Positions 1 to 47,380 of a stretch of 55,277 nucleotides of DNA are shown here, piece by piece. Both the position numbers and the translations under genes were made by a program. This DNA comes from Nemertoderma westbladi. Taxonomy: Eukaryota; Animalia; Xenacoelomorpha. The notes below the pieces were generated by a model, which saw only the letters and a list, made by a program, of their open reading frames with translations, was not told the origin of the DNA and made no database searches. The first letter of the stretch is position 1. Each line of letters begins with the position of its first letter. The stretch spans positions 1 through 55,277 of the forward strand of contig JAUCBJ010005493.1 of assembly GCA_032718475.1 (NCBI GenBank), written 5' to 3'.

Positions 1-330
1 GCTACCGGTAACGCACAACACTGCTCACTGATATGCCGACAGTTACTGACTTTGATCAGGTATAAAGAGATATGCACTGGACTCAGGTAGTGTCTGTCAA
101 ACAACATTAGATTCACTACAAACGCAATAATAAAGTCGCAATTGTTGTACATAACCCTTCTCTCTAACCTGTAGTGTATCAAGGATATTGGGAAAATTGT
201 GGGTTGATTATTGATATTCTTCAACTAATAACATCCAATTATACTGATACAAAATTACAAACAGTAAAAGCAGTATGACGGTAGGTTAAGATATAATTAG
301 ATTGCATTGAATCGTTAAGTTATAAATTGG

Positions 331-372
331 AATCGTGTCGAATCGAATCGGATCGAATCGGATCGAATCGAT
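331..372. repeat. Pentanucleotide microsatellite (ATCGA/ATCGG)n
   Basis: Sequence tcgaatcgaatcggatcgaatcggatcgaatcgat. Confidence 0.85.
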
Positions 373-1483
373 AATAGCTATGCTTTCTATAATTTAGCCT
401 ACTAATGTTCTTATAAAAAGGCAGAAACATTGCGTCATTCCAGCCGATCTTCAGGCAGTATGGAACGACATAAACACTGAGTTTGGGAGCTGCTGTAGGT
501 ATCTCTTCAAGGAAAACGCAAATCACCCTGATTGGTTGTTAGACCAAAACAAAGGAACCAGGAGTCCAATGAGAGCTCCCTCCACGTCATCATCCAGCTG
601 GGAGATGTCGTAATCAGAATCCTTCCCTTGACATAGTGACAGTGAAATGCCGCATTGCGGGTTGTGTACCCTGCTACGTCCGCATAAAGCACACATTCAG
701 AAGAATCTATTTTATGTCCGTTAAAAACACTTATACAGCACCCCGAGGGCTAGGGGATCCAATTATATCTGTAAACGCTTTTACAGCAGGTTTCAGAGTA
801 TTTCAGCGTATGGGGGAAAAACTGGATCGCGGGGCGAAGGACCAGTTGCATCCCACAGAAGCTTTTACAAAGATATAAAAATAATTATACTTAAAAATTA
901 TACAGCTGTAATCCCCACACCCCATTCCATTATAGTTTTTAATTAGTTCAAGTGATTTGCTTTAAGAAATGTGTTTTTAATTGATCTAAACGTAATTATG
1001 CTATCAAAATACCACCGTCTCTCTATACTTCCAGCTCCATCATTCATTGGCATGCTTGCTATTGCCTAGCCCAGCAGCTGCTGGCGCTGGGAACCGGTCC
1101 AACAACCTCAGCACTACTTGGCATCGGGTAATTACATCAATAGGACATAGGCACAAGTGTAAGGTTACTAATAACCCAGCTTGCTTTATCTCGCAAAATG
1201 ATTGGCTAAGTATTTAATCGTGATTCTCTAGAATAATTAACTAAATAATTTCGTTGAGGTGTTGGTTGACATGATCAATTAATCCGTGGCCGGAGACGAC
1301 CCTTCGATAGCTGCTACTCACAGCCCTAGTTTTGCCCCCAATAATTTAATTTAACTAGTAGTTGAGTATTCATGATTCTAAATTAATTAGTTAACAATTG
1401 ATTGGATTATTATTGCAATGATAATTCTCAATGCTAAAATTAACCGACCCCCGTTCCGCTGTAGGTCTAGTTTATCGACTCAC

Positions 1484-17700: not shown

Positions 17701-20700
17701 CTACCAAAAGAGACCCTGTAGTAACAGTTATTCACTTACTCGTATACCCCTTCTACCAAAAGAGACCCTGTAGTAATAGTTATTCACTTACTCGTATACC
17801 CCTTCTACCAAAAGAGACCATGTAGTTATTCACTTACTCGTATACCCCTTCTACCAAAAGAGACCCTGTAGTAATAGTTATTCACTTACTCGTATACCCC
17901 GTCTACCAAAAGAGACCCTGTAGTAATAGTTATTCACTTACTCGTATACCCCTTCTACCAAAAGAGACCATGTAGTAATAGTTATTCACTTACTCGTATA
18001 CCCCTTCTACCAAAAGAGACCATGTAGTAATAGTTATTCACTTACTCGTATACCCCTTCTACCAAAAAGAGACCATGTAGTAATAGTTATTCACTTACTC
18101 GTATACCCCTTCTACCAAAAGAGACCATGTAGTAATAGTTATTCACTTACTCGTATACCCCTTCTACCAAAAGAGACCCTGTAGTAATAGTTATTCACTT
18201 ACTCGTATACCCCTTCTACCAAAAGAGACCCTGTAGTAACAGTTATTCACTTACTCGTATACCCCTTCTACCAAAAGAGACCCTGTAGTAATAGTTATTC
18301 ACTTACTCGTATACCCCTTCTACCAAAAGAGACCATGTAGTAATAGTTATTCACTTACTCGTATACCCCTTCTACCAAAAGAGACCATGTAGTAATAGTT
18401 ATTCACTTACTCGTATACCCCTTCTACCAAAAGAGACCATGTAGTTATTCACTTACTCGTATACCCCTTCTACCAAAAAAGACCATGTAGTAATAGTTAT
18501 TCACTTACTCGTATACCCCTTCTACCAAAAGAGACCATGTAGTAATAGTTATTCACTTACTCGTATACCCCTTCTACCAAAAAGAGACCCTGTAGTAATA
18601 GTTATTCACTTACTCGTATACCCCTTCTACCAAAAGAGACCCTGTAGTAACAGTTATTCACTTACTCGTATACCCCTTCTACCAAAAGAGACCCTGTAGT
18701 AATAGTTATTCACTTACTCGTATACCCCTTCTACCAAAAGAGACCATGTAGTAATAGTTATTCACTTACTCGTATACCCCTTCTACCAAAAGAGACCCTG
18801 TAGTAATAGTTATTCACTTACTCGTATACCCCTTCTACCAAAAGAGACCCTGTAGTAACAGTTATTCACTTACTCGTATACCCCTTCTACCAAAAGAGAC
18901 CCTGTAGTAATAGTTATTCACTTACTCGTATACCCCTTCTACCAAAAGAGACCCTGTAGTAACAGTTATTCACTTACTCGTATACCCCTTCTACCAAAAG
19001 AGACCCTGTAGTAATAGTTATTCACTTACTCGTATACCCCTTCTACCAAAAGAGACCCTGTAGTAATAGTTATTCATTTACTCGTATACCCCTTCTACCA
19101 AAAGAGACCCTGTAGTAATAGTTATTCACTTACTCGTATACCCCTTCTACCAAAAGAGACCCTGTAGTATTAGTTATTCACTTACTCGTATACCCCTTCT
19201 ACCAAAAGAGACCCTGTAGTAATAGTTATTCACTTACTCGTATACCCCTTCTACCAAAAGAGACCATGTAGTTATTCACTTACTCGTATACCCCTTCTAC
19301 CAAAAGAGACCATGTAGTAATAGTTATTCACTTACTCGTATACCCCTTCTACCAAAAGAGACCATGTAGTAATAGTTATTCACTTACTCGTATACCCCTT
19401 CTACCAAAAGAGACCATGTAGTAATAGTTATTCACTTACTCGTATACCCCTTCTACCAAAAGAGACCATGTAGTAATAGTTATTCACTTACTCGTATACC
19501 CCTTCTACCAAAAGAGACCATGTAGTAATAGTTATTCACTTACTCGTATACCCCTTCTACCAAAAGAGACCATGTAGTAATAGTTATTCACTTACTCGTA
19601 TACCCCTTCTACTGTACCAAAAGAGACCATGTAGTAATAGTTATTCACTTACTCGTATACCCCTTCTACCAAAAGAGACCCTGTAGTAACAGTTATTCAC
19701 TTACTCGTATACCCCTTCTACCAAAAGAGACCCTGTAGCTGTAGTAACAGTTATTCACTTACTCGTATACCCCTTCTACCAAAAGAGACCCTGTAGTAAT
19801 AGTTATTCACTTACTCGTATACCCCTTCTACCAAAAGAGACCATGTAGTAATAGTTATTCACTTACTCGTATACCCCTTCTACCAAAAGAGACCCTGTAG
19901 TAACAGTTATTTACTTACTCGTATACCCCTTCTACCAAAAGAGACCCTGTAGTAATAGTTATTCACTTACTCGTATACCCCTTCTACCAAAAGAGACCAT
20001 GTAGTAATAGTTATTCACTTACTCGTATACCCCTTCTACCAAAAGAGACCATGTAGTAATAGTTATTCACTTACTCGTATACCCCTTCTACCAAAAGAGA
20101 CCCTGTAGTAATAGTTATTCACTTACTCGTATACCCCTTCTACCAAAAGAGACCATGTAGTAATAGTTATTCACTTACTCGTATACCCCTTCTACCAAAA
20201 GAGACCCTGTAGTAATAGTTATTCACTTACTCGTATACCCCTTCTACCAAAAGAGACCATGTAGTAATAGTCATTCACTTACTCGTATACCCCTTCTACT
20301 GTACCAAAAGAGACCATGTAGTAATAGTTATTCACTTACTCGTATACCCCGTCTACCAAAAGAGACCCTGTAGTAATAGTTATTCACTTACTCGTATACC
20401 CCTTCTACCAAAAGAGACCCTGTAGTAATAGTTATTCACTTACTCGTATACCCCTTCTACTGTACCAAAAGAGACCATGTAGTAATAGTTATTCACTTAC
20501 TCGTATACCCCTTCTACTGTACCAAAAGAGACCATGTAGTAATAGTTATTCACTTACTCGTATACCCCGTCTACCAAAAGAGACTCTGTAGTAATAGTTA
20601 TTCACTTACTCGTATACCCCTTCTACTGTACCAAAAGAGACCATGTAGTAATAGTTATTCACTTACTCGTATACCCCTTCTACCAAAAGAGACCATGTAG

Positions 20701-23700
20701 TAATAGTTATTCACTTACTCGTATACCCCTTCTACCAAAAGAGACCCTGTAGTAATAGTTATTCACTTACTCGTATACCCCTTCTACCAAAAGAGACCCT
20801 GTAGTAACAGTTATTCACTTACTCGTATACCCCTTCTACCAAAAGAGACCCTGTAGTAATAGTTATTCACTTACTCGTATACCCCTTCTACCAAAAGAGA
20901 CCCTGTAGTAACAGTTATTCACTTACTCGTATACCCCTTCTACCAAAAGAGACCCTGTAGTAATAGTTATTCACTTACTCGTATACCCCTTCTACCAAAA
21001 GAGACCCTGTAGTAATAGTTATTCACTTACTCGTATACCCCTTCTACCAAAAGAGACCCTGTAGTAATAGTTATTCACTTACTCGTATACCCCTTCTACC
21101 AAAAGAGACCCTGTAGTAACAGTTATTCACTTACTCGTATACCCCTTCTACCAAAAGAGACCCTGTAGTAATAGTTATTCACTTACTCGTATACCCCTTC
21201 TACCAAAAGAGACCATGTAGTTATTCACTTACTCGTATACCCCTTCTACCAAAAGAGACCCTGTAGTAATAGTTATTCACTTACTCGTATACCCCTTCTA
21301 CCAAAAGAGACCATGTAGTTATTCACTTACTCGTATACCCCTTCTACCAAAAGAGACCATGTAGTAATAGTTATTCACTTACTCGTATACCCCTTCTACC
21401 AAAAGAGACCATGTAGTAATAGTTATTCACTTACTCGTATACCCCTTCTACCAAAAGAGACCATGTAGTAATAGTTATTCACTTACTCGTATACCCCTTC
21501 TACCAAAAGAGACCCTGTAGTAATAGTTATTCACTTACTCGTATACCCCTTCTACCAAAAGAGACCCTGTAGTAACAGTTATTCACTTACTCGTATACCC
21601 CTTCTACCAAAAGAGACCCTGTAGCTGTAGTAACAGTTATTCACTTACTCGTATACCCCTTCTACCAAAAGAGACCCTGTAGTAATAGTTATTCACTTAC
21701 TCGTATACCCCTTCTACCAAAAGAGACCATGTAGTAATAGTTATTCACTTACTCGTATACCCCTTCTACCAAAAGAGACCATGTAGTAATAGTCATTCAC
21801 TTACTCGTATACCCCTTCTACTGTACCAAAAGAGACCATGTAGTAATAGTTATTCACTTACTCGTATACCCCCGTCTACCAAAAGAGACCCTGTAGTAAT
21901 AGTTATTCACTTACTCGTATACCCCTTCTACCAAAAGAGACCCTGTAGTAATAGTTATTCACTTACTCGTATACCCCTTCTACTGTACCAAAAGAGACCA
22001 TGTAGTAATAGTTATTCACTTACTCGTATACCCCGTCTACCAAAAGAGACTCTGTAGTAATAGTTATTCACTTACTCGTATACCCCTTCTACTGTACCAA
22101 AAGAGACCATGTAGTAATAGTTATTCACTTACTCGTATACCCCGTCTACCAAAAGAGACTCTGTAGTAATAGTTATTCACTTACTCGTATACCCCTTCTA
22201 CTGTACCAAAAGAGACCATGTAGTAATAGTTATTCACTTACTCGTATACCCCGTCTACCAAAAGAGACCCTGTAGTAATAGTTATTCACTTACTCGTATA
22301 CCCCTTCTACTGTACCAAAAGAGACCATGTAGTAATAGTTATTCACTTACTCGTATACCCCTTCTACCAAAAGAGACCATGTAGTAATAGTTATTCACTT
22401 ACTCGTATACCCCTTCTACCAAAAGAGACCCTGTAGTAATAGTTATTCACTTACTCGTATACCCCGTCTACCAAAAGAGACCATGTAGTAATAGTTATTC
22501 ACTTACTCGTATACCCCTTCTACTGTACCAAAAGAGACCATGTAGTAATAGTTATTCACTTACTCGTATACCCCGTCTACCAAAAGAGACCCTGTAGTAA
22601 TAGTTATTCACTTACTCGTATACCCCTTCTACTGTACCAAAAGAGACCATGTAGTAATAGTTATTCACTTACTCGTATACCCCTTCTACCAAAAGAGACC
22701 ATGTAGTAATAGTTATTCACTTACTCGTATACCCCTTCTACCAAAAGAGACCCTGTAGTAATAGTTATTCACTTACTCGTATACCCCGTCTACCAAAAGA
22801 GACCATGTAGTAATAGTTATTCACTTACTCGTATACCCCTTCTACTGTACCAAAAGAGACCATGTAGTAATAGTTATTCACTTACTCGTATACCCCTTCT
22901 ACCAAAAGAGACCCTGTAGTAATAGTTATTCACTTACTCGTATACCCCTTCTACCAAAAGAGACCATGTAGTAATAGTTATTCACTTACTCGTATACCCC
23001 GTCTACCAAAAGAGACCATGTAGTAATAGTTATTCACTTACTCGTATACCCCTTCTACCAAAAGAGACCATGTAGTAATAGTTATTCACTTACTCGTATA
23101 CCCCTTCTACCAAAAGAGACCATGTAGTAATAGTTATTCACTTACTCGTATACCCCTTCTACCAAAAGAGACCCTGTAGTAACAGTTATTCACTTACTCG
23201 TATACCCCTTCTACCAAAAGAGACCATGTAGTAATAGTTATTCACTTACTCGTATACCCCTTCTACCAAAAGAGACCATGTAGTAATAGTTATTCACTTA
23301 CTCGTATACCCCTTCTACCAAAAGAGACCATGTAGTAATAGTTATTCACTTACTCGTATACCCCTTCTACCAAAAGAGACCCTGTAGTAATAGTTATTCA
23401 CTTACTCGTATACCCCTTCTACCAAAAGAGACCATGTAGTAATAGTTATTCACTTACTCGTATACCCCTTCTACCAAAAGAGACCATGTAGTAATAGTTA
23501 TTCACTTACTCGTATACCCCTTCTACCAAAAGAGACCATGTAGTAATAGTTATTCACTTACTCGTATACCCCTTCTACCAAAAGAGACCATGTAGTAATA
23601 GTTATTCACTTACTCGTATACCCCTTCTACCAAAAGAGACCATGTAGTAATAGTTATTCACTTACTCGTATACCCCTTCTACCAAAAGAGACCCTGTAGT

Positions 23701-26700
23701 AATAGTTATTCACTTACTCGTATACCCCTTCTACCAAAAGAGACCATGTAGTAATAGTTATTCACTTACTCGTATACCCCTTCTACCAAAAGAGACCATG
23801 TAGTAATAGTTATTCACTTACTCGTATACTCGTATACCCCTTCTACCAAAAGAGACCATGTAGTAATAGTTATTCACTTACTCGTATACCCCTTCTACCA
23901 AAAGAGACCATGTAGTAATAGTTATTCACTTACTCGTATACCCCTTCTACCAAAAGAGACCATGTAGTAATAGTTATTCACTTACTCGTATACCCCTTCT
24001 ACCAAAAGAGACCATGTAGTAATAGTTATTCACTTACTCGTATACCCCTTCTACCAAAAGAGACCATGTAGTAATAGTTATTCACTTACTCGTATACCCC
24101 TTCTACCAAAAGAGACCATGTAGTAATAGTTATTCACTTACTCGTATACCCCTTCTACCAAAAGAGACCCTGTAGTAATAGTTATTCACTTACTCGTATA
24201 CCCCTTCTACCAAAAGAGACCATGTAGTAATAGTTATTCACTTACTCGTATACCCCGTCTACCAAAAGAGACCCTGTAGTAATAGTTATTCACTTACTCG
24301 TATAACCCTTCTACTGTACCAAAAGAGACCCTGTAGTAATAGTCATTCACTTACTCGTATACCCCTTCTACCAAAAGAGACCATGTAGTAATAGTTATTC
24401 ACTTACTCGTATACCCCTTCTACCAAAAGAGACCATGTAGTAATAGTTATTCACTTACTCGTATACCCCTTCTACCAAAAGAGACCCTGTAGTAATAGTT
24501 ATTCACTTACTCGTATACCCCTTCTACCAAAAGAGACCATGTAGTAATAGTTATTCACTTACTCGTATACCCCTTCTACCAAAAAGAGACCCTGTAGTAA
24601 TAGTTATTCACTTACTCGTATACCCCTTTTACTGTACCAAAAGAGACCATGTAGTAATAGTTATTCACTTACTCGTATACCCCTTCTAACAAAAGAGACC
24701 CTGTAGTAATAGTTATTCACTTACTCGTATACCCCTTCTACTGTACCAAAAGAGACCATGTAGTAATAGTTATTCACTTACTCGTATACCCCTTCTACCA
24801 AAAAGAGACCCTGTAGTAATAGTTATTCACTTACTCGTATACCCCTTCTACCAAAAGAGACCATGTAGTAATAGTTATTCACTTACTCGTATACCCCTTC
24901 TACCAAAAAGAGACCCTGTAGTAATAGTTATTCACTTACTCGTATACCCCTTCTACTGTACCAAAAGAGACCATGTAGTAATAGTTATTCACTTACTCGT
25001 ATACCCCTTCTAACAAAAGAGACCATGTAGTAATAGTTATTCACTTACTCGTATACCCCTTCTACCAAAAGAGACCCTGTAGTTATTCACTTACTCGTAT
25101 ACCCCTTCTACCAAAAGAGACCCTGTAGTAATAGTTATTCACTTACTCGTATACCCCTTCTACCAAAAGAGACCATGTAGTAATAGTTATTCACTTACTC
25201 GTATACCCCTTCTACCAAAAGAGACCATGTAGTAATAGTTATTCACTTACTCGTATACCCCTTCTACCAAAAGAGACCATGTAGTAATAGTTATTCACTT
25301 ACTCGTATACCCCTTCTACCAAAAAGAGACCCTGTAGTAATAGTTATTCACTTACTCGTATACCCCTTCTACTGTACCAAAAGAGACCCTGTAGTAATAG
25401 TTATTCACTTACTCGTATACCCCTTCTACCAAAAGAGACCATGTAGTAATAGTTATTCACTTACTCGTATACCCCTTCTACCAAAAGAGACCCTGTAGTA
25501 ATAGTTATTCACTTACTCGTATACCCCTTCTACTGTACCAAAAGAGACCATGTAGTTATTCACTTACTCGTATACCCCTTCTACCAAAAGAGACCATGTA
25601 GTAATAGTTATTCACTTACTCGTATACCCCTTCTACCAAAAGAGACCATGTAGTAATAGTTATTCACTTACTCGTATACCCCTTCTACCAAAAGAGACCA
25701 TGCAGTAATAGTTATTCACTTACTCGTATACCCCTTCTACCAAAAGAGACCATGTAGTAATAGTTATTCACTTACTCGTATACCCCTTCTACCAAAAGAG
25801 ACCCTGTAGTAATAGTTATTCACTTACTCGTATACCCCTTCTACCAAAAGAGACCATGTAGTAATAGTTATTCACTTACTCGTATACCCCTTCTACCAAA
25901 AGAGACCATGTAGTAATAGTTATTCACTTACTCGTATACCCCTTCTACCAAAAAGAGACCCTGTAGTAATAGTTATTCACTTACTCGTATACCCCTTCTA
26001 CCAAAAGAGACCATGTAGTAATAGTTATTCACTTACTCGTATACCCCTTCTACCAAAAGAGACCATGTGTAATAGTTATTCACTTACTCGTATACCCCTT
26101 CTACCAAAAGAGACCATGTAGTAATAGTTATTCACTTACTCGTATACCCCTTCTACCAAAAGAGACCATGTAGTAATAGTTATTCACTTACTCGTATACC
26201 CCTTCTACCAAAAGAGACCATGTGTAATAGTTATTCACTTACTCGTATACCCCTTCTACCAAAAGAGACCCTGTAGTAATAGTTATTCACTTACTCGTAT
26301 ACCCCTTCTACTGTACCAAAAGAGACCATGTAGTAATAGTTATTCACTTACTCGTATACCCCGTCTACCAAAAGAGACCATGTAGTAATAGTTATTCACT
26401 TACTCGTATACCCCGTCTACCAAAAGAGACCATGTAGTAATAGTTATTCACTTACTCGTATACCCCGTCTACCAAAAGAGACCATGTAGTAATAGTTATT
26501 CACTTACTCGTATACCCCTTCTACCAAAAGAGACCATGTAGTTATTCACTTACTCGTATACCCCTTCTACCAAAAGAGACCCTGTAGTAATAGTTATTCT
26601 CTTACTCGTATACCCCTTCTACTGTACCAAAAGAGACCATGTAGTTATTCACTTACTCGTATACCCCTTCTACCAAAAGAGACCATGTAGTAATAGTTAT

Positions 26701-27185
26701 TCACTTACTCGTATACCCCTTCTACCAAAAGAGACCATGTAGTAATAGTTATTCACTTACTCGCATACCCCTTCTACCAAAAGAGACCATGTAGTTATTC
26801 ACTTACTCGTATACCCCTTCTACCAAAAGAGACCATGTAGTAATAGTTATTCACTTACTCGTATACCCCTTCTACCAAAAGAGACCATGTAGTAATAGTT
26901 ATTCACTTACTCGTATACCCCTTCTACCAAAAGAGACCATGTAGTAATAGTTATTCACTTACTCGTATACCCCTTCTACCAAAAGAGACCATGTAGTAAT
27001 AGTTATTCACTTACTCGTATACCCCTTCTACCAAAAGAGATCATGTAGTAATAGTTATTCACTTACTCGTATACCCCTTCTACCAAAAGAGACCATGTAG
27101 TAATAGTTATTCACTTACTCGTATACCCCTTCTACCAAAAGAGACCATGTAGTAATAGTTATTCACTTACTCGTATACCCCTTCT
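14733..27185. repeat. 12.4-kb minisatellite, about 240 copies of a 52-bp unit (46-, 53-, 57- and 58-bp variants) derived from the exon/5' splice-site junction
   Basis: Unit ctaccaaaagagacc(a/c)tgtagtaatagttattcacttactcgtatacccctt. The array runs directly into the exon at 27171-27185 and into unique intron sequence at about 14732. Confidence 0.97.
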
Positions 27186-27839
27186 CACAACTGTAAATGA
27201 TCTGATCGCCGTCATAGTAACGGGTAAAAACGCGATTCCCTGTCAGCGGCGCCGGATGCCATATGACCTTCTCAATGCGAACGTGTGGCGGCATCAACGG
27301 CTCCTGTTCCTGCTCGCAAGGATACTGACGCAGATGCTCCACGCACAGATCCTCTACAACTTCCCAGTTGCCGTCCATATCACAACGGACCGTTTTAACG
27401 TTGGCCGCTTTCTCGAAACCGCTACAAGGCCGTATATTCGAGTAAGAGAATGTATACCCATGCTCGTAAGTGCCGCTTTTGAAAGAGGTTATCACACTTC
27501 CTTTGCTAGCTAGTACTGATGTTTGTGACAGTCCGATCCCGTCCAATTGGGATGTGCGACACACGATTTTGGAACACTCGTATTCCAGTTGTGGCCAACC
27601 GGTGGCCTCGCAGACTATCTCTGTTGGTCCTTTGGTAGCGTTGTAACCCGCCTCACAGATGTAGCCCGCCTTACTTGGTGTCACCCATGGACCCAGGTAG
27701 GAGGTATCTATGCGCGAGTTCGATTTGGCCTGTGGTGGAGGACCGCAGTGTATGGGTACATTGTCGCATAGCGAACTGAGTCCCAATGGAAGCCACTCAC
27801 TATTCTCCGAACACACAGCTTCTTGCTTCTTATCAATAA
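27171..27839 (-). CDS. Exon (phase 1-1), Sushi/CCP repeats; its 3' end seeds the 52-bp array
   Basis: Acceptor ttttttacag, donor A|GTAAGT at 27170. The join CEKGYT-S-IPPSQKVSVTC with the next exon restores a CCP domain. Confidence 0.9.
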
Positions 27840-27977
27840 CTGTAAAAAAATAGTTTTATATAATAGGATAAAATAAAGACAATTTAAAACATGATATATT
27901 AATTTACGCAGACAGTTTAACGCAATGCATTTTATGACCAGTTTGTATTTCGGTGACATCATAATTTTTGTTAACCT

Positions 27978-29162
27978 TGTAAAAGCTTTTGCGGAATTAG
28001 CTGGTTATTTTTCCCGCAAAGTACTCTGTAGTTGGTTTAACGGACATAAAAAGCCGTTTCCTTACTGTACCGGTGTTTTAGTGGACATAAAAAGCCATTT
28101 CTTCTGTATGTGTAATTTAGCGGACATAACTAGCAATTCTATGTCGCAATACGCTAAAATCCCCTTGAAACAGTGTAGTTACTATGACGACAGCTAACAG
28201 CTGATCTGTACACGTGGAGCTTTTTCTTTGTTCTCTGTCGTTTCTTTGTTCGGTCGACCAATCAGAGCGTTTTTTGACTCTGTGTTGGAGGTTGTATACA
28301 GAAACTCATGAATTGAGTCAGTATGTGTATTTTGTCCACAGCCAGAAGACCGGCTTTGGAACCTCTGTGTTTTCAGGCTTTAGCCCAACATTAGTAGGCT
28401 TAATCATAGAAACGTATATCTGTTATCTTAACAAATCAATCATAACATAACTCACTCACCTAATCATATTGTCAACTACAAACACCGCATTTTTACTGCT
28501 ATTTACTGTCGGTTATTCATTATATCAGTTGATGGAATATTGTTATATTTGGATAATATCGATCAATAATCAGAAACCCCAATCTTCTTGATATACTGAA
28601 GGTTAGAGAGACCGGTTACATATAACAATTGCGACTTACATTAAAGTGGTTTTGGAGTGAATCTAATGCTATTTCATAGGCACTACATGAGTCGGTTGTT
28701 GTTCTCTTTATATGTGACTAAAATTAGTGAAGGTCGGCAGATCGGTGTGCAGCATTGTGCGGTATTGTGCATGATTGTGACTGATAACAAAGCATCTCCT
28801 AAAGAATGCGCTATATACGTGAATCCATAGCCATCCCGTTGTGTCTAGTGTAAGTCATAACTCTGTTTACATATTTAGAGCGCCACGTCCTAAAGGAACT
28901 GTTAATATTTCCCGAAAGTGAATAATATTTGTCAGAGACTATATATTACGATCAGTCGAATAATACAGTAGGCCTACACCGCAATAAGGTTAGGCTTCCG
29001 AATCCAGTCTCCCGGGTATATCCAGCGGGTGAATGGTCGCGCATAGACTGGCTTCGGCTAATGTAGTGTATCAAATACTCGTCATAGGCTAAAGTCGATT
29101 TATTATCTAGAAGACATCCAAATTTGGCAGGTTAAACTGCTAAAGGTCTGAGAGCGCGAACA
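27978..29162 (+). repeat. 5' LTR (1185 bp)
   Basis: Starts tgtaaaagc, ends gcgcgaaca. About six substitutions spotted relative to the 3' LTR. Confidence 0.96.
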
Positions 29163-29174
29163 ATAACAGATATA
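29163..29174 (+). promoter_or_regulatory. Non-tRNA primer-binding site, complementary to LTR positions 28415-28426 (putative self-priming)
   Basis: ATAACAGATATA abuts the LTR terminal CA with no spacer and no TGG. Its exact reverse complement TATATCTGTTAT occurs in both LTRs (28415, 46633). Confidence 0.7.
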
Positions 29175-29503
29175 GATTTCAAATTGCAGTGTAGGCAATA
29201 AAAGCAGTTTAATATTGTTCTGGTAAGAACAATAACGGTTATTGCTTCTGTATTGCAGTAGGAAATAAAGCTGAAGTACCGGTGAACCGGTACCCAGTAG
29301 GCCTAACTACCTAACCACACGAACCGGTACTTACAGCAGTACAGGTACAGCAGTATTATTCGATTTTGATAATTATATACCGGTAGGTCTGAATAAGTAA
29401 TCGGGGACGCCTGGTTTTTATTGGGATTTACTTATTTCTGTCAGTTTTATTTATTTGTAGGCTAATATTGAGCAGAAGGCGTGTAAGCCTGCTCAGATTG
29501 TAC

Positions 29504-30084
29504 AGATAATTTGTAGGCTGGACTGTTGTCTGACTGTTGTTAAGTCTGAAGAGATTGCGGTGTGTGTAGAGTGTATGTCCGATAAAGTACTAGTTAGGAA
29601 AGTAGGGGCTTCCAGTGCTGTGAGGTAAATCCCCTCGAAAGAATAAGTCGTACTACTCGGTTAGAACGCATACTAACTAACCATTTCGGAGTCTGCATAT
29701 ACTGTAGTTTGTTTAGGCTTGATAGTAGTCCGCCAGCGTTTGGTCTGTATTTTGTATGTGTAGTCTGTACGGGTAGTGTAATATTTCTTATTTAGATAAT
29801 TTGTAGGCTGGATTGTTGTCTGGCTGTTGTTAAGTTTGAAGAGATTGCGGTGTGTGTAGAGTGTATGTCCGATAAATTACTAGTTAGGAACGTAGGGGCT
29901 TCCAGTGCTGTGAGGTAAATCCCCTTGAAAGAATAAGTTGTACTACTCGGTTAGAACGCATACTAACTAACCATTTTCGGAGTCTGCATATACTGTAGTT
30001 TATTTGGGCTTGATAGTAGTCTGCCAGAGTTTGGTCTGTATTTTGTTTGAGTAGTCTGTACACGTAGCGTAATATTTATTATTC
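29504..30084 (+). repeat. Two tandem copies of a ~290-bp unit in the retrotransposon 5' leader
   Basis: agataatttgtaggctgga...gagattgcggtgtgtgtagagtgtatgtccgataaa recurs at 29504 and 29794. Confidence 0.9.
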
Positions 30085-31033
30085 AGAGTTTATGCGATTA
30101 TTCGCAACATTCATATCCCCAAGTTAATTCCTACAGTAATTGTGTTTGTTGTACATACCGTTATAGTTAAATTAACCCCGGTACTACATCAGGGCTGCTT
30201 GGCGTAGGTAAAGACTGGTGATTTTGTGCCCCGGTCACTCCAGCAGATACCGTGGTTCTTTTAGCTGTACAAGTATTTCTAACTGCTGATTATTTGTTGT
30301 ATAAGTACTTGTACCTAATTTAGGGTTTAGTGTACAGTGCTTTCCGAAGGTAATTAGTGTGTAGGCAGTATATTTGTGTTGTAAAATGGTTAATAGGCAC
30401 GTTGGTTCTGGTAGACCGCGGTAATTAACTTCTTGGTAGGAACACTCCGTGATACATAACGTAGTACTTATAGCGATACGGCTATAAGTCGTCAGACGGT
30501 GGTATTTTTCTATCTGGACAACGCAATATATTTACTACTGCTTGTTATTTTTAAATACCTTAGTACCCTGTCCGTTGTAATAACCAGATATCCTAACCCT
30601 TTGTTGGGCTGGTTTGTAGACTTCTTGTAAAATTACCCTAAAAATTTGTACGTGTAATTTTTGTGTTTATTTAGAGATTGTAATCTCACCCCGAATTGTA
30701 CGTAATTTGTAGTATTAAGTAACTTAGGTAAATTATAATTATTTGTTTTAGTGTCCAACAAGTAGCACTTCACTGAGAGTGTACAGCTTCTGTGCAGTGA
30801 CACCTTCCCAGAAATAATAACATTTATTTCGAATATTGACAAAAACCCATTAAAACGGGTATATATATTATAAATCAACTCAAACCGATTTATAAAATAG
30901 TAGGCCTGTCATACAACAATTAGGTCTTAATATCAGTTGGACTACTGCTTAAATAACGGTAATCAAGTAAAGTAAAGTAAACAAAACAAGTAACCCCTAA
31001 AATTCAGAAATTCAATTATTCTAAAATAATTGA

Positions 31034-31290
31034 CATACCGGTATTTGCAATAGGCTTATTATATTTATTTCTATAAATTTAGGCTAAATTATATACCGGT
31101 ATTCTGTAATTAATTCTAGTCTGTAATTATACTTATATATATACATTATAAGTGTAAGCTGTATACCGGTATTCACGATAGGCTTATTATATATTGCTAT
31201 ATATTTGCGCTGAAATTACATACCGGTATTCTGTGACAAATCTAGTCTGTAATAATACTTATATATATATTATAAGCATACTGGTATTCT
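31034..31290 (+). repeat. Diverged ~127-bp tandem duplication in the leader, rich in TACCGGTA
   Basis: ataccggtatt...ataggcttattata...ataccggtattctgt...ctagtctgtaat occurs twice. Confidence 0.7.
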
Positions 31291-31424
31291 AATATATTAT
31301 ATATATATCACGCTACACTGAGTAGCAGTATCGGTAATTAATTACTAGGCTAACAGTTGATACTGAATTACTAGACTTGCTTTAACTGTAATATAGCAGT
31401 AGGCATTCAACTGTACAAACAAAC

Positions 31425-31853
31425 ATGTCTGACACAAAGCAAAACCTGTCAGACAGTCTCCTAGATACGACCATCTGTGACCCAGACAGGAGTGTGGAAC
31501 GTGTGAGACCGAAGTTCAACTCACCTCCTACTGTAAGAAAGATCATCCCTCCAGTAGTAGTATCCGACCCTAGGCTAGTCCAACACCGTAGGTCTATCAT
31601 AGGCATTCGAGCTCAAGTCAAGCGAGACCAAGAAGCAGCGGAACAGCAGCAACACTCGAGCCGAGAACGTATTTCTCAGCGGCCCGACAGCTCCAGTAGT
31701 GCGGATACTGTAGAGCTGACACCCGAGCTTGGAGCAAAGATGGCGGATGCGATTTATTCGGATCCCCTTCTCATCCTTCCTGCAGCCGTACTCACTAGGG
31801 TATTGATTGCGGTGGAGGAACACCAGATTGATTGGGCGAGAAGTAAGCGATGA
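31425..31853 (+). CDS. 142-aa ORF upstream of gag, overlapping it by ATGA (separate ORF or frameshifted Gag N-terminus)
   Basis: Coding-like composition starts at ATG 31425. The stop TGA overlaps the ATG at 31850. Confidence 0.5.
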   Translation: MSDTKQNLSDSLLDTTICDPDRSVERVRPKFNSPPTVRKIIPPVVVSDPRLVQHRRSIIGIRAQVKRDQEAAEQQQHSSRERISQRPDSSSSADTVELTPELGAKMADAIYSDPLLILPAAVLTRVLIAVEEHQIDWARSKR

Positions 31854-32594
31854 CCAAGGATAGTTATGCGGGATACACAAGGGAAGAATTGAAGTCTATT
31901 GTCGAGTCGCAATGGAACTTCCCCGGACCCGGACTCCCGTTTGACTTATCGGAAGCTGCCTGGGAAGACATACACAGGATGGGAGTAACAAAAGAAACCA
32001 TCGATCCAGCTGTGTGGAAGAGGTCAGCAGCAGGATACATACAGGGATTCTTCAGCTCTATGGAGCGATTAGAGGAACAACTGTTTCGACAACCCCAAGG
32101 ACCTCAAGAGCAGGGAGAGCTGCTTTATCAAGTTAGAGAAAGAATTCTACGAATCAGACTAATCTTATCGGCCTTTGAGGAGGCTTCGAAAAGAAGACAA
32201 GACACGTCGTTGCAAGTTGCCGTAAAGACTTGGTTTCAGCGGGTGAGTCTCCAAGTTCAAGGAACTGCCCAGTGGAAATCTCAGCTGGCTGAGCGCTCAA
32301 CCCATGGAGAATCAACAGACGCTACATTTTCCCAAGTGGAAAGTGAAGCGACGGCAGAGAAACTGCATAAGAGGGATGCCATTGACATCTATCTGTCGGA
32401 CTATCAACGTTTTGTAGGAGATGAAGAGTTGAGGAGAAGGCTAGATGGACTTAGCCCTAATAGTGAAGGAGCCAAGCTTGTGTTGGACGCAATAGATGCG
32501 GATATGATAGCTGCGAACCAAGCTAAATTTGATGAACGCCTCCGCATCACTAAGGTCCAAGAAGAACAAGTAAAGAAAAAACGTATAGAAGACA

Positions 32595-32840
32595 GAAAGA
32601 CAGCGGCAGTGGCAGCAGCAGTGGCAGCGGCAGAAGTGGAAAGAAAAGCGGCAGTGGCAACGGCAGTGGCAGAAGCGGAAAGAAAAGCGGCAGCGGCAGC
32701 GGCAGAGGCAGAAGTGGAAAGAAAAGTGGCAGCGGCAGCGGCAGAGGCAGAAGCGGAAAGAAAAGCGGCAGTGGCAGCGGCTGAAGCGGAAAGAAAAGCG
32801 GCAGTGGCAGCGGCAGAGGCAGTGGCAGAAGCAGAACGGA
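32595..32840 (+). repeat. Coding tandem repeat in gag (AEAERKAAVAAA-like)
   Basis: Recurrent gaaagaaaagcggcag/gtggcagcgg blocks. The antisense ORFs here are shadows of this repeat. Confidence 0.85.
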
Positions 32841-34188
32841 GAGCGTCTGAAGAAGCCACCCAACTGGAGTTGGAAAACATTCAAGAGAATCAAGACTGCA
32901 TAAATAAACAGTTAACAGCTAGTCAAATGCAGATGATGAGTCGATCAACTCCCAAAAGACAGGGATATACATCATCTGAGGAAGGCGATACCACCGATCC
33001 TGAAGGCGGAGGAAATAGATCTCGTCTAAGCAGACGTAGAAGAATGTCCCACCGTCAGAAATTGCCTGATTTGCCCCCAGCTGTTAGAAGGCAACTAACT
33101 AACACAAACTTAGGTAGTACAGAACCCACAGACCAAATAATTAACATAGAAAGACTCCCTACTATAGTAGATGAGCCTGAAATAATTAGGCCTGTTCTCG
33201 AAGCCACCCCTTCGGTGATAGAGACACCTGTACTCCCAGAACCTACCTCTAAATTCCCTTTGCATAGCACTAAACTACCTGTGCCCAGCAGAACAGCCCA
33301 TGAGACAGTTCCTGTTCTGGACTCCGAGCGAAATATCAATGATTTGTCGCCCGTTGTCCCCCGTCCACCCGCTACTACGTTGGCGGCTCCCGCTTCAGCG
33401 GTCGAGTGGGTGGATCAGAGACGGCGGGGGATGGATCTCCTGCTCGGGCAGATGCAGGAGACTGTTAAGCAGTTCAAAGGCACAGTAAGGGAAAGTAGGT
33501 TAGAGTTGCAAGAAGTGCAGCAAAGTATCGCGTTAGAACGCGATAAATTAGTAAATACACAAAAGGGTATACCACCACCCCCTGTAACAATGTGTCAACC
33601 TGTTAGGTCTGAAGTATTTCATGCGAAAGGTGTGGAGCCTACACGCATCTATACTGCTAGCGAAGTGGAAACTCCTATAGTAAACCCTATTAAGGGTAAT
33701 TATAAACCTGTTGACAATGATATTCCATATAGACCTGATCATAATCCGAGAAATTTATATACCGATAACTCGATATTAAATAACACGATGGCCCAAGAAA
33801 GTTTTACGCGTCAAATGGCTAGAACCGAAGCCCGTCAAGCGGTAAAGGTGGGAGAGATCGTCAAGTTCAATGGAGATGAGATGAAATGGTTACCTTTTAA
33901 TGAATATTACAAAGATAACATACAGAACTCTGTGCTATCAAACGGAGTGAAACTTAGATTCCTCATCGAGTGCTTGGAAGGATCTCCCAAGTTAATGGCG
34001 TTAAAGTTTATTGGACATCCCGATGGATTAAGACAAGTTTGGGATACCCTAAACATCAGGTATGGTAATAGGAATAACATAGCTAGGTATTTGTATGCAA
34101 AATTGGTAGTGCCCCGAAAATTCATTAGCAGCGGGATTATAGAGTTTTCCGATGAGATTCAGGAGATCTGTAGACAATTAGATTGGCT

Positions 34189-34857
34189 GATCGGATGAGC
34201 ATAAGCTCAAAGGATGGTATGCTTGAGCATGTGGACGACTTCTGTTACCTGGGATCATGGATCCGGAAGTCAGGTGAGGACCTTCGAATACGTAAGGGAA
34301 AGGCATGGGCAGCCTTGAATAGGCTTTCCAGGATCTGGAAGTCACCTATAATTAATCGGAAACTTAAGGTCCGATTATTTAGAGCAGCAGTAGTTCCAGT
34401 ACTCCTCTACGGGAGTCCATGCTGGGCTCTAACTGCTGAGGACACCAAATCTCTGGATGGCACATTCACAAGAATGCTACGCCGGGTACATTGTGTCAAG
34501 TACAATGCACACATCTCCAACCAGACACTATATAACATTGGAGGTGTCTCATTGGTTCCCCCAAGCTTGACACTAGAACAAAATCGCCTCCGCTTTGCAG
34601 GACATTGCTTTCGCCGTGAGGACCAGCCAGTGCATAATCTTGTACTTTGGCAGCCTCTTGGAGTGAATAAGCATGGTGGACAGCCCATGACTTTCTTGAG
34701 ACGCATCTTAAAGGACACTGGCCTTAAAGATGCGGATGATCTAGCAAATGTCATGGGTGATAGGGAGTTGTGGCGGTGCAATTTTGTTGACAAGCCGGCA
34801 CAGCATTCTTAAAAATGCAGCTGCAATGCAGCATGCCGATCCTAGTAGTAGTAGTAG
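34189..34857 (+). mobile_element. 5'-truncated RTE-type non-LTR retrotransposon fragment nested in gag
   Basis: 10-bp TSD TAGATTGGCT (34179-34188 and 34858-34867), (TAG)n tail, RT C-terminal motifs FCYLGS, VLLYGSPCW, RLRFAGHCFR. Removing it rejoins gag in frame (RQLDWL-GKSHEY). Confidence 0.92.
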
Positions 34858-37800
34858 TAGATTGGCTAGGTAAGTCTCATGAATATCAGAGTTCTATGGT
34901 TATTGGAGCTGTGGCCTCTACTTTACCGAAGGGTGGAGTAGGTACACGCTGGGATAAGAAAGTGTTATATATGATGGAACAGCAACGACGAGACCCTACC
35001 ATGGCTGATCTCATGTCATTCTTAGATGGAGAAGTGAAATTACAGCTCCAAAAGCAGTCCAGAGAGAAGACACCGGAAAACAAGGTAAGTGAGAAACCCG
35101 TTTCTAGGAGAAAGGTAACACCAGTGTGTTATACCGACGACGGCGAAAGCCAGGCTTCTCAAGGAGAGGACAGCGGGAAAGACACTGAAAGATCTTATTA
35201 TGTCAACAAAACGCCCAAAGACGTAAGTAAATTCAGGTCTCTAACCAATGACAGGAGAGAACAGGTAAGAAAAACCCCTCCTACATCTCCTAAGAGAATT
35301 CAGGTAAGAAAGCCCGAAGAAAGAACGAGTGTGCACAACGTTACTCAAAATAAGGTAAGTAACATCAAACCGAAATGTGCGCTGTGTGACGGGCCCCACC
35401 GTTTGAATGTGTGTGATGAATTCCTAAAGAAATCATTAACGGATAGACGGGAAGTCATGTGGGATAAGCGGTTGTGTTATAATTGCCTCAGACAAGGACA
35501 CCAACGGCGAACCTGTTACTCCGACGTAAGGTGTGCAAAGTGCGGTGCGAAACATCATATCTTGTTGCACACTGAAAAGGATATGTATGAAAAGGACACC
35601 GACAGCGAGCTCACCCTAACTACTTCTGACCGACAACCATCTTGGAAAGCACCAACTTCCAATGTAGGAATCCGAGAATTTCCTGTAGTGCAGTTAAGGG
35701 TCCACGGACCTACAAGGAGTTATATAGTGAACGCCCTCCTTGACTCCGGTAGCACAGGAACATTCATCGACAAAGAACTTGCCGAAGACATCTTTGCTGG
35801 ACAACCCAAGTTCCGAACTAAGCTAAACATGTCAGGAATTATGCAGGTTTGGAAATCTACAGTAATAGCGGATTATTATGTAGGTGCGTTGTCCACCCCC
35901 CAGGATGAACTAGGACAACACAGCATAAGGTCAGTAAAAATGGTGGCGATAAAGAACTTCGCTACCAGCCAAGTAGAACATTATAACTGGGATGAGGACG
36001 ATTTCACCCAGCAGCTTGATATACCTAGATTCAACACCGATTACCCTGGAGTGCAAATACTCATCGGTCAAAATGCGCACGAGGCGCTCGAGACATTGGA
36101 GAAACGGCCTGCTCAACCGCAACCACTACAAGCTTATGCGGGAAGAACTAGAGTGGGTTGGTACTTTACTGGCCCTTCCCGTAGAACTCTCATGGAAAGA
36201 TTACCAAAAGATCAGGTATATCAAGTAAGAGAATGGGAAGTGGAGAGTAGTGAGGTAGACGATCCAACTGAGGGAATACCATACTCCTCAGATAATGACG
36301 ATATCCACCAACTCTTCGACGAGGAGAATACCATTGATCTCCTTACGGAAAACGAGACTTGGCAAAACCAAGTGAACCTATGTCAGCTCATTCGTCCATC
36401 AGAACGAGTCGACTATAACGACGAACTGAATGACGTAATTGAACGTTATAATGCAAAAACTCGGGATGAACACGCCGTACGATTCTTTACTCAAGAGGCT
36501 GTAGAGCCCAATTCCTACGATAAGGCCCTATCGGTAGAAGAAGAAAGAGCCAAGCAGATCCAAGAGACAACTACACGTTTTCTTAAAGATCAAGGTAGAT
36601 ATGAAATCGGTCTACCTTTCCGAAAGCGAGAACCAAAGTTCATAAACAACAGACCCTTGGCGGAGAAAAGAATTGCTCAACTACATCGACGCCTTACGGC
36701 AAATTCTTCAGCTAAAGAAATGTATCAGACGCAGTTGAAGAAATTTATTAACAAAGGATATGCGGAGCGAGTACCGGAAGAAACACCTATAACTGAGAGA
36801 TCGTATTATTTAACACATCATTACGTTCCCAAACCCGGTAAACCTCATGAGGTACGAGTAGTGTTTGACGGCTCCGCCCTTTACATGGGCCAATCCCTTA
36901 ATTCCGAGTTGTTACCAGGACCCAACTTACTCCAATCCTTGTTGGGAATACTCTTAAGATTACGACAATATTCAATCGCTTTCGCCTCCGATATAGAAGG
37001 CATGTTCTTACAAGTCAAGGCGTTGGATAGGGATCGAGACAGCCTACGATTTCTGTGGTGGCCTGAAGGTGACCTCAACCAGAAACCGGTGGAGTATTGG
37101 ATGACCATCCAGGCTTTTGGGATCATCTCAAGCCCTTCAAACGCCTGCTCAGTGGTGCGCACCACTGCTGATGACAACCGGGACGCCTTCTCGAAAGAGG
37201 TGATCGACAACATCAAACGGGATATATACATGGACGACAATTTAAAGTCCCTTCCATCTGTGGAAGAAGCCATTGATGTCGCCAAAGGAACGGTAGAGTG
37301 CTTAAAAAGAGGTGGATTTCGATTAACTAAATTCACCAGCAACTCCCGTGAGTTTCTGGAGTCGATCCCGGTAGAAGATCGAGGAGCGAAAGACCTAGAT
37401 CTAATCAAAGATGATCTTCCAGAAACCAAGACACTTGGTTTGAAATGGGACACAGAGAGAGATATCCTGTTTTTCCAGCTAAAACAGCGAGATAATCCAG
37501 TTCGGACTAAACGGATTTGTTTAAGTATCCTGAGCACTTATTTCGATCCATTGGGATTTATTAGCCCAGTTATATTGATTGCTCGGAGTTTAGTACAACA
37601 AATGTGGCTTGAAAACCACTCATGGGACGATCCACTTAAGGGAGAATTATTAAAGAAGTGGATGAAATGGGAAGATTCTCTACCCGCCATCGAATTAGAA
37701 TTATAAGAATTATAATTTCCCGTTCATATTTTGGTCATGTTCTCCCTACGTATTCCTATCAACTCCATGTGTTTGGAGACGCCAGCGATATGGGAATAGG

Positions 37801-40277
37801 TATAGTAGCCTACCTAAGAGTGGAAACTCCGGATGGAATCAAAGTCGCCTTGGTTACCTCTAAGGCATTGATAAACAACAAGTTGAAAGTTCCTCGAGCG
37901 GAGTTAAAAGCGGCTCTATACGCTACAGCCATCGGCCGGAATGTAACAGAACAGATCGATTATCCGTTGGAGAAAACTGTCTATTGGACCGATGCTTTAC
38001 TCGTGTTGGAGTATATAACCAATGAAGTCTGTCAGTTCAGCGTCTTCGTTACCAACAGAGTAGCCATTATACTTAGTCGCACGAAGATGGATCAATGGAG
38101 ACATTGCCCCGGAACGATTAATCCAGCAGACATCGCTTCCAGGGGAGCAACTCCACAAGAACTGATAGATACTCCAGACTGGTTAGGTGGACCCGACTTC
38201 CTAAGCAAAGAAGAGGATGAATGGCCTCCTCATCTTACTACGGCAGAGATTAGACAGGCCAAGGGAGCAGAGAAAGTCAAACCTAAATCTCAGGCGAGTA
38301 AATCGAAGTTATTTAAACCCGTGGTAGATCTGTCTGTACTACACACTTCCGGAGACGACGATTTGAATCCGAAACCCACAGCCACAAATAAGTCTGTTGT
38401 GGAAATCAGAGAGAGGGATTGGAAATCTGGAATACCAGACGTCTCGCAAGGACTCTCACCTCTCCTGCAGAGAGCGATATATCACTACAGTTCCTGGAAT
38501 CGGCTCTGTAAGGCCGTTACATATTTAAAGCGATGTTTTCATCATCACTACTCCAGGGCGAAGACCAACAGTGATACCGCTCCACTGACATCTGTGCAGG
38601 TCCATGTTGTTAAAGATCTTCCCAAATATAAGATATCCGACAGGTTTCTGAAGGAGAAGATCAGTTATCAGGAGCATGAAGAAACCAATAAGCAGATGCT
38701 GAGACTCCTGCAATGCTATGAGGATTCCGATAAGTATTTCCTGTTGTTGAGAAATCCACAGATGTGCTTAAGGGATCGTTTCTCTAGCACAATGATAGAT
38801 GGGTTGATACGTGTTGGAGGAAGATTAACTAATGCTCCATTATCCTTTGACACCAAGTTTCCCATACTCATTAGAAATCTTGAAATACAAATCAAGATGA
38901 TTGTAGATGTTCACAGCAAACTTTATCATGCTGGTAGAGAACGAGTTCTTAGCGAAATTCGAACTCGCTATTATTTTTATAAACCCCGTAGAGCTCTGAA
39001 CCAAGTTCTTAGGAACTGCATACCCTGTAGGAAAGCATTCAGTAGGCCTTTAACACAGCGAGAGGCAGAATTACCTAGGGAACGAGTAAGCTTCTATGAA
39101 CCACCCTTTACTAATACAGGTGTAGATTTATTTGGCCCTATTGAAGTATATCGTGCTAGGACTATAGTCAAGAGATGGTGTGTCATCTTTGTTTGTATGA
39201 CTTGTAGAGCTATCCATCTCGATATGGTGAACGATTTATCTACCAACAGCTTCCTATTAAGCTTACGACGACAGATCGCTCGCTTTGGAACTAGTAACAC
39301 GATGAGATCTGATAAGGGAACGAACTTCATTGGTGCCAACAATGAAATCAAAGCTTACGTCAAAGATTGGAACCAAAGTCAGGTTGACGATCAGCTAAGG
39401 GTAACAGCGTCTAGCTGGACCTTCAACGCCGCCGACGCCCCTTGGTGGGGAGGAAGTTGGGAGAGATTAATCAGGAGCGTGAAGACCGCATTTCACTTTA
39501 TAGTGCCGTGCCGCGCGTATCTCACCGACGAACTTTTGCGGACGTTAATGGAGGAAATCGCCGCCTATCTCAACGAGAGACTGCTTATGCCAGTCTCATC
39601 GAGTCCCGATTCCCTGGAAGCGCTAACACCCGCACACTTCCTACTGAAGAAACCTGTAGCCATGCTCCCACAATCGGAAATCACAGACGGAGACGAATAC
39701 TGCCGGCAAACTTGGCAACTTATGCAGTTGTTATCCCATCGTTTCGCTGACCATTTCGAAAAACATTATCTGCCCACGCTACAACTTCGAACTAAGTGGT
39801 TTGCGCAGCAAGAAAACGTCAGCGCTGGAGACATGGTCCTTATTGTGGATTCAGATCTTCCACGTAAGCGGTGGCAGACAGGACGTATCATCGAGACTCA
39901 CATCTCGGATGACGGTTTGGTGTGATCGGTAGAACTCGTCGTCATGCGACGTAACTTCAAGAAACCGGGAATTGTCTTCGAGACACAGCAGCTCAATCGC
40001 CCAGTTGGTCGTTTATGTTTACTGGAAAGAGACAGAGAACTCTCCAGAAACTATGGAAGACAAGATACTCTTCCCACGACCACCTCCCTAATCCAACAAA
40101 CATCTAGGGACTCCCCAGCTTAGCAGCGTCTGGAGTGGGTGTGTGACCATATTATTTTATATTCTTATTATTTTATATTTATGTATGTATTATTATGTAA
40201 TTTTATTATAATCGTTTTCTTTAATTTTATTTAGTAGAATGTTATTTTAGCGATTATTTAGTAGATTAGTGCAATAT

Positions 40278-46118: not shown

Positions 46119-46187
46119 CTGTTTAGAGTATTTCTATATTTTAGAAACTGTGATTTTTATATTTTAAAGAATTAAATCCCATTTTCT

Positions 46188-46195
46188 GGGAGCGG
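46188..46195 (+). promoter_or_regulatory. Polypurine tract (GGGAGCGG) abutting the 3' LTR
   Basis: Lies immediately 5' of the TGT at 46196. Confidence 0.7.
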
Positions 46196-47380
46196 TGTAA
46201 AAGCTTTTGCGGAATTAGCTGGTTATTTTTCCCGCAAAGTACTCTGTAGTTGGTTTAACGGACATAAAAAGCCGTTTCCTTACTGTACCGGTGTTTTAGT
46301 GGACATAAAAAGCCATTTCTTCTGTATGTGTAATTTAGCGGACATAACTAGCAATTCTATGTCGCAATACGCTAAAATCCCCTTGAAACAGTGTAGTTAC
46401 TATGACGACAGCTAACAGCTGATCTGTACACGTGGAGCTTTTTCTTTGTTCTCTGTCGTTTCTTTGTTCAGTCGACCAATCAGAGCGTTTTTTGACTCTG
46501 TGTTGGAGGTTGTATACAGAAACTCATGAATTGAGTCAGTATGTGTATTTTGTCCACAGCCAGAAGACCGGCTTTGGAACCTCTGTGTTTTCAGGCTTTA
46601 GCCCAACATTAGTAGGCTTAATCATAGAAACGTATATCTGTTATCTTAACAAATCAATCATAACATAACTCACTCACCTAATCATATTGTCAACTACAAA
46701 CACCGCATTTTTACTGCTATTTACTGTCGGTTATTCATTATATCAGTTGATGGAATATTGTTATATTTGGATAATATCGATCAATAATCAGAAACCCCAA
46801 TCTTCTTGATATACTGAAGGTTAGAGAGACCGGTTACATATAACAATTGCGACTTACATTAAAGTGGTTTTGGAGTGAATCTAATGATATTTCATAGGCA
46901 TTACATGAGTCGGTTGTTGTTCTCTTTATATGTGACTAAAATTAGTGAAGGTCGGCAGATCGGTGTGCAGCATTGTGCGGTAGTGTGCATGATTGTGACT
47001 GATAACAAAGCATCTCCTAAAGAATGCGCTATATACGTGAATCCATAGCCATCCCGTTGTGTCTAGTGTAAGTCATAACTCTGTTTACATATTTAGAGCG
47101 CCACGTCCTAAAGGAACTGTTAATATTTCCCGAAAGTGAATAATATTTGTCAGAGACTATATATTACGATCAGTCGAATAATACAGTAGGCCTACACCGC
47201 AATAAGGTTAGGCTTCCGAATCCAGTCTCCCGGGTATATCCAGCGGGTGAATGGTCGCGAATAGACTGGCTTCGGCTAATGTAGTGTATCAAATACTCGT
47301 CATAGGCTAAAGTCGATTTATTATCTAGAAGACATCCAAATTTGGCAGGTTAAACTGCTAAAGGTCTGAAAGCGCGAACA
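46196..47380 (+). repeat. 3' LTR (1185 bp)
   Basis: Near-identical to 27978-29162 and followed by TSD AACCT. Confidence 0.96.

Follow-up and report, generated by a model that had tools for sequence, protein, structure and literature searches.

How does a retrotransposon prime reverse transcription if no transfer RNA (tRNA) can pair beside its long terminal repeat (LTR)? This question is raised by an element in a 55,277-nt stretch of DNA from Nemertoderma westbladi (contig JAUCBJ010005493.1), referred to here as the window. The element is assigned to BEL/Pao, which ranks among the three main superfamilies of LTR elements in animals. According to the ICTV profile of the Belpaoviridae, the replication of BEL/Pao elements is poorly understood and tRNA-primed, with an 18-nt site for tRNA-Arg or tRNA-Gly in genomes of 4.2-10 kb that carry LTRs of 0.2-1.2 kb (PMC8742986).

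The element is delimited by 1185-bp direct repeats (27978-29162 and 46196-47380) that differ at six positions (99.5% identity) and have TG...CA ends, which makes them an LTR pair. The sequence AACCT is found on both flanks as a 5-bp target-site duplication. The main parts of the element are as follows.

27973..27977, + strand: target-site duplication, left copy (right copy at 47381-47385)
27978-47380, + strand: BEL/Pao element, recognized by its LTR pair, target duplication and Pol domains
27978..29162, + strand: 5' LTR, 1185 bp, TG...CA, from the direct repeat
31392..39925, + strand: gag-pol region in five overlapping frames, interrupted in the window copy
46188..46195, + strand: polypurine tract adjoining the 3' LTR, from the sequence
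46196..47380, + strand: 3' LTR, from the direct repeat, with a second copy of the predicted primer segment at 46634-46644

The gag-pol frames (31392-31853, 31847-34198, 34174-34812, 34791-37706 and 37640-39925) specify, in order, DUF1759, CCHC knuckles, a protease motif (a weak match only, E 0.017), reverse transcriptase (RT, with YMDD), Peptidase_A17/RNase H, Integrase_H2C2 and DUF5641. Acidic motifs that we take to be those of RNase H are present, as motifs only, in 37640-39925, and a domain scan of 37640-39922 gave no match to a chromodomain. Among the RT relatives listed, 119 of 120 carry PF05380, at 38-46% identity, and the named hosts are cnidarians, echinoderms, hemichordates, molluscs, crustaceans, a nemertean, amphioxus and fish. 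The assignment to BEL/Pao follows from the Pol domains only; the tRNA site of the ICTV profile is missing from the element. The outer LTR ends are 19.4 kb apart, or ~16.4 kb without a nested insertion. Judged by these features, the window element is a recent but interrupted BEL/Pao copy, and it is located, in antisense orientation, between exons that encode Sushi domains in a host gene.

Several other features were observed within and around the element. For example, the leader (29163-31400) is unusually long at 2.2 kb and includes a 290-bp tandem duplication at 29504-30087. The nested insertion (40278-43278) is DNA-transposon-like, with terminal inverted repeats of ~36 bp and ATAT as an apparent 4-bp duplication. 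Of its two abutting frames, the second has DUF7869; the insertion is presumably Sola-like. Extra reading-frame remnants lie between pol and the 3' LTR (44745-46118), and a scan of two of their frames gave no significant Pfam match. Outside the element, exons of the large host gene (1467-14520, 27163-27855 and 49244-51088, - strand) encode numerous repeats of the Sushi and LDL-receptor class A types, and also yield a weak HRM match. A ~12.5-kb array of a 52-bp satellite (14598-27185) is located inside the same host gene region, a G-skewed minisatellite (47714-49133) is found just past the 3' LTR, and a LINE-type ORF with endonuclease and RT domains occupies 52152-55055.

The first TGG beyond the 5' LTR is at 29223, 60 nt downstream, and a tRNA 3' end therefore cannot pair beside the LTR. 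The original prediction, made from the window sequence, had already noted the lack of a TGG tRNA site after the 5' LTR, and this is confirmed. It had also reported that the 12 nt following the LTR are complementary to a segment within it, and its letters and coordinates are all correct: the reverse complement of 29163-29174 occurs letter for letter at 28415-28426 (LTR nt 438-449), in a helix whose terminus coincides exactly with the last LTR base. When the LTR was shuffled with its dinucleotides preserved, such a 12-mer arose at offset 0 in 8 of 20,000 shuffles, in keeping with a predicted chance of a few in 10,000, and at offsets 0-4 in 24 of 20,000. Among the 17,022 12-mers found in the internal region, only 2 are complementary to an LTR segment, one being the primer-site 12-mer itself. 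The feature is thus judged not to be a product of chance. ARAGORN detected no tRNA gene in the window, and scans for exact motif matches gave none in contigs of viral, metagenome or genome origin.

Other copies of the element were read from contigs of five of the eight sequencing runs listed, none of them on record as RNA. Listed substitutions affect one of the 11 positions in 29163-29173 versus eight of the nine in 29174-29182, and the latter segment also has seven listed indels. Within 29153-29173, the sole listed substitution is A>T at 29170, at ~20% of the depth in runs X1 and X3, contig depth here not being equivalent to copy number. One insertion is listed behind 29169, and no listed variant alters 29163-29165. 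Two loose ends have further changes at site positions 8-11. Neither for these nor for the 29170 variant was a partner site seen among the variants listed, which tells against covariation. At 29152, G is present in the 5' LTR, and A in the 3' LTR and in nearly all contigs of other copies.

These differences in variability bear on the length of the duplex. Position 28415 adds a twelfth pair in the window copy only. An extension to 16 of 18 pairs had been predicted as well, and GAAA at 28409-28412 does pair with 29177-29180, but the extension varies among copies; as part of the primer it was rejected, since 29174-29182 is variable. Given the one variable position of 11 versus eight of nine, neither the twelfth pair nor the GAAA/TTTC extension is conserved. 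The conserved duplex is accordingly read as 11 bp, 28416-28426 with 29163-29173, and its two arms are described below.

29163..29173, + strand: non-tRNA primer-binding site adjoining the LTR, complement of 28416-28426, from pairing and conservation among copies
28416..28426, + strand: predicted 11-nt self-primer, LTR nt 439-449, from pairing, with a putative RNA start at A28416

The same copies speak to the idea that a deletion removed a normal TGG site from the window element and that the match to the LTR is due to chance. The window copy is indeed decayed, with an interrupted gag-pol and a nested insertion downstream. Nevertheless, the site is common to copies from two studies, and none of their listed variants in the region 29085-29290 creates a TGG, as would be expected if other copies had a normal tRNA site. 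The shuffles noted above (8 of 20,000) and the same design in relatives, described below, likewise tell against deletion, which is largely refuted and barely credible.

A second LTR in the window, from a sister family, provides a comparison.

9..869, - strand: LTR of a sister family, truncated by the edge of the window, with ~72% identity in its best-matching segment

The 11-nt site of this LTR that is homologous to 28416-28426 runs from 381 to 371 and has other letters at positions 4 and 7. In run X5, a loose end represented by two contigs has the LTR-end CA followed by 11 letters that differ from the window site at the paired positions 8 and 5. These letters are the exact complement of the sister site, a match expected in 1 of 495 cases given two changes, although the sister site and the X5 variant are unlinked records from different organisms. 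A chimera of primer and cDNA was considered as a source of the X5 variant and was rejected, as the letters that follow mismatch the sequence upstream of the sister site. The sister LTR also has, at nt 26-46 (844-824, - strand), a 21-nt stretch that starts with TGG and is missing from the LTR of the window element. We take this stretch to look like a sequence complementary to a tRNA 3' end. A 6-bp inverted repeat encloses it, so it may be either a chance occurrence or the relic of a tRNA site.

Comparable sites are found in relatives of the element. A profile scan gave 80 metagenome loci with 38-45% RT identity, of which 13 had a copy-defined LTR end, 10 were submitted to a free-end scan and 57 were left out for want of a usable LTR pair; one locus (L073) was transferred from the copy-defined to the free-end set. 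In the test applied to relatives, the LTR segment may span a GT...AG intron. At offsets of 0-3 nt, 10 of the 13 copy-defined loci have a self-complement of 10-15 nt; with offsets of 0-4 and the LTR end of L017 set by hand, all 13 loci, representing 12 families, do so (null ≤4/200). Nine of the sites span a predicted splice junction and four are contiguous. None of the 13 has a TGG within 0-5 nt of the LTR end. Helices in all positive relatives terminate within 0-4 nt of the LTR end, and their lengths cluster at 10-12 nt. The LTRs of L035 and L017 apparently end in TA rather than CA; the TA end of L035, in which the two LTR copies do not differ, is confirmed by a 5-bp duplication.

The free-end scan found spliced sites of 10-11 nt in seven of 10 loci, two of which repeat families already counted, and missed L031, L052 and L075; the sites of L001 and L073 were equalled by 1-2 of 25 shuffles. 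A held-out set of 24 genome-contig loci, nine of which were scored, was treated by the same fixed rule as the copy-defined set. Here, five of the six CA-ended loci have a self-complement of 10-11 nt (null ≤2/200), the sixth (L083) being missed at 8 nt. Three loci without a CA end (L085, L096 and L101) scored 5, 8 and 5, for a total of 5/9 if they are counted. In L091, a TGG lies inside the self-complementary site. The pair L086 and L087, with 88% RT identity, differ by two compensatory changes, each located within one contig. Complementarity across related families, which the original prediction had proposed as a test, is thus kept with compensatory changes, unlinked for the sister and X5 records and linked for L086 and L087. 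The feature is not confined to the window element but is spread over BEL/Pao relatives at 36-45% RT identity, most of them with a site predicted to be intron-split. The self-complementary site is read as a lineage-wide trait.

An RT tree of 39 rows with no outgroup has the families with contiguous sites scattered among the spliced ones; the branch that bears the window RT is long (1.69) and its position is unsure. A scan of viral contigs with the RT gave no relative. Twenty-four BEL/Pao loci (L081-L104), several with complete LTR pairs, occur in metagenome-assembled genome records of prokaryotes, and are likely host DNA binned into prokaryote genomes.

The relatives also inform on whether a host tRNA fragment or other small RNA could prime, with the LTR match being incidental. 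Six letters of the primer site presumably resemble the anticodon loop of tRNA-Asn, and the sister site alters these letters. Each family has a site that its own LTR complements, and LTRs of other families almost never do so: only one of 180 non-self pairs attains 10 nt. Moreover, Rfam has no family match at the LTR or leader. Halves of tRNAs do prime some copia elements, as described in part of one report (PMC6317226), but for the window element such priming is very improbable.

If the LTR segment is the primer, its position at the RNA 5' end depends on where transcription starts. The predicted RNA start is A28416 or just before it. A start at 28409-28415 had been proposed originally; conservation favours instead a primer of 11 nt that begins at 28416 as the most likely one. 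A28416 is preceded by a pyrimidine, as is the first base of the sister site. Immediately upstream is a shared motif.

28387..28412, + strand: conserved motif just upstream of the primer segment, 24 of 26 positions identical to the sister LTR

This motif is likely a core promoter, or possibly a splice acceptor, and it ends in YAG in both LTRs. The latter possibility is part of a different reading, in which the primer is an internal RNA segment, either because the RNA starts further upstream or because a cis- or trans-spliced leader is joined at AG 28408-28409. In addition to the YAG, several findings agree with an internal segment. The window copy has no TATA word upstream of 28416, at -30, and has a CCAAT box at 28258; the sister LTR has a TATA-like word 34 nt upstream of its site, a few nt beyond the usual distance; and the predicted first-exon parts of spliced relatives are only 2-9 nt, which is short for a cap-proximal exon. 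In contrast, a TATA word in L062 lies 31 nt before the first base of the primer, and no upstream donor in the window element lengthens the pairing, the best spliced match being 6 nt. (A splice-built primer for the window element, tried in its own right, was rejected, as this match was equalled by 56 of 60 shuffles.) Folding, which is weak evidence for RNAs of this length, also predicts that the primer helix is lost (≤0.17) if an unspliced RNA begins at 28360 or earlier, and that it forms at 0.9-1.0 in RNAs that begin within 28370-28420. An internal primer segment is considered unlikely.

A further RNA end has to be weighed.

29086, + strand: possible downstream RNA 5' end, from one X4 contig

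The contig in question, with a depth of 43.7, joins adaptor-like letters at 29086, which we take to be a template-switch adaptor. The end could be a real, primer-less start or a break introduced with the library, and it tells mildly against an RNA start at 28416. A real start would liken the window element to Tf2, which also makes primer-less transcripts from downstream starts, as noted in part of the Tf2 literature (PMC5341516).

The pairing might also have been selected for a structural role, for example as a switch or as a 5'-3' or dimer contact with 46634-46644, with the primer being another RNA or the 3' end of the element. Under this reading, an RNA start at 29086 would leave only the 3' LTR copy of the segment in the RNA. 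Competing leader hairpins are also present. A second stem had been described in the original prediction.

29132..29141, + strand: U5 arm of the second 10-bp stem, crossing the primer helix, from pairing
29183..29259, + strand: long hairpin of the leader, in competition with the second stem and including its 3' arm (29203-29212), from folding

The second stem, a perfect pairing of 10 bp between 29132-29141 and 29203-29212, was attained in 2 of 2,000 shuffles and is real in the window copy. It crosses the primer helix and is absent from the nested minimum-energy fold, a model that does not include crossing pairs. It does not appear to be a general feature: none of 12 relatives has a perfect U5-leader stem of >6 bp, and some contigs of other copies retain the primer site but lack 82-99 nt beyond it, the 3' arm of the stem among them. 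A precedent for self-pairing at this position is the "conserved hairpin site" of the fungal GalEa copia elements, which replaces the tRNA site and whose role is given as not known. In the sections cited, however, this is a local palindromic hairpin without an LTR-internal complement, whereas the window site has a partner in the LTR (PMC5445492). Other evidence points away from a purely structural role. The distance of 0-4 nt between helix and LTR end in every positive relative is that required of a primer 3' end, and the helix lengths are concentrated at 10-12 nt. Because the letters of the site vary from family to family, no single trans primer fits. The LTR contains no AATAAA, nor is there an ATTAAA upstream of the site. 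A structural role with a different primer is regarded as quite unlikely.

The window element is instead probably self-primed from the RNA 5' end through its 11-nt site (29163-29173 with 28416-28426), as Tf1 is. Self-priming was the core of the original prediction, and it gains from the covariation, the conservation of 11 nt, the absence of a listed TGG variant and the design of the relatives, while its biochemistry is extrapolated from Tf1. In this mechanism, the genomic RNA would have its 5' end at A28416 or immediately upstream, and its first 11 nt would fold back onto 29163-29173 across a 736-nt loop. The RNase H of the element would cut after nt 11 (28426/28427) and leave a 3'-OH facing the terminal base of the LTR. 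From there, RT would copy 29162 back to 28427 to yield minus-strand strong-stop DNA, which would then be transferred to the 3' LTR. Most relatives would build their primer by splicing out an LTR intron, whereas it is contiguous in the window element.

A broader proposal is put forward tentatively, with confidence just short of even. A wide BEL/Pao lineage of aquatic animals may be self-primed throughout, with the splicing of a cap-proximal LTR intron building the 11-nt primer in most families. In families with contiguous sites, the intron would have been lost or never present, and a primer-less start further downstream may turn these families off. If splicing does build the primer, retrotransposition would depend on host splicing.

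To our knowledge, self-priming has been shown only for Tf1 and is predicted for some gypsy and plant copia groups. In Tf1, the first 11 bases pair with the site and RNase H cuts between bases 11 and 12 (PMC7175516), and Tf1/sushi elements are self-primed with a three-duplex structure (PMC10085805, PMC4600332). As far as these sources are drawn on here, the window element shares with Tf1/Tf2, Tj1 and the Tf1/sushi Ty3/gypsy chromoviruses a CA-adjoining site complementary to an LTR segment, with a duplex of 11 nt as in Tf1 (PMC7175516, PMC4600332, PMC10085805). It differs from Tf1/sushi elements in its BEL/Pao Pol, its lack of a chromodomain match and its 736-nt loop within a 1185-bp LTR. Furthermore, the three-duplex "pretzel" does not appear to be conserved in the BEL/Pao relatives, and the site of most relatives is predicted to be intron-split. 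The evidence for Tf1 is experimental, whereas the window element is known from sequence alone. It most likely works like Tf1, but it is not a member of the Tf1/sushi group.

With the Belpaoviridae, the element shares TG...CA LTRs, a polypurine tract, gag followed by PR-RT-RH-IN, Peptidase_A17, DUF1759 and DUF5641, and it departs from the profile in its lack of a tRNA-type site and in its span (19.4 kb versus 4.2-10 kb; PMC8742986). Self-priming has also been predicted from sequence for Tcn1 and TAR (Houba, Osr-1) copia elements of plants, outside the fungal and vertebrate Tf1/sushi elements. These represent other superfamilies and hosts, and no splice-built primer is seen in the portion of that report cited here (PMC6317226). 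A term search found neither "tRNA" nor "priming" in three BEL/Pao surveys (PMC3118150, PMC554778 and PMC6238403). Just as the original prediction knew of no description of BEL/Pao self-priming, a literature search, outside of which lay most subscription papers, supplements, Repbase and GyDB, yielded no publication that describes BEL/Pao self-priming or BEL/Pao primers built by splicing.

If the proposed mechanism is true, self-priming would extend to a third LTR superfamily and would bear on whether tRNA-priming or self-priming came first. Such elements may be freed from control by host tRNA fragments, and their mode of priming would explain why they are missed by annotation based on primer-binding sites.
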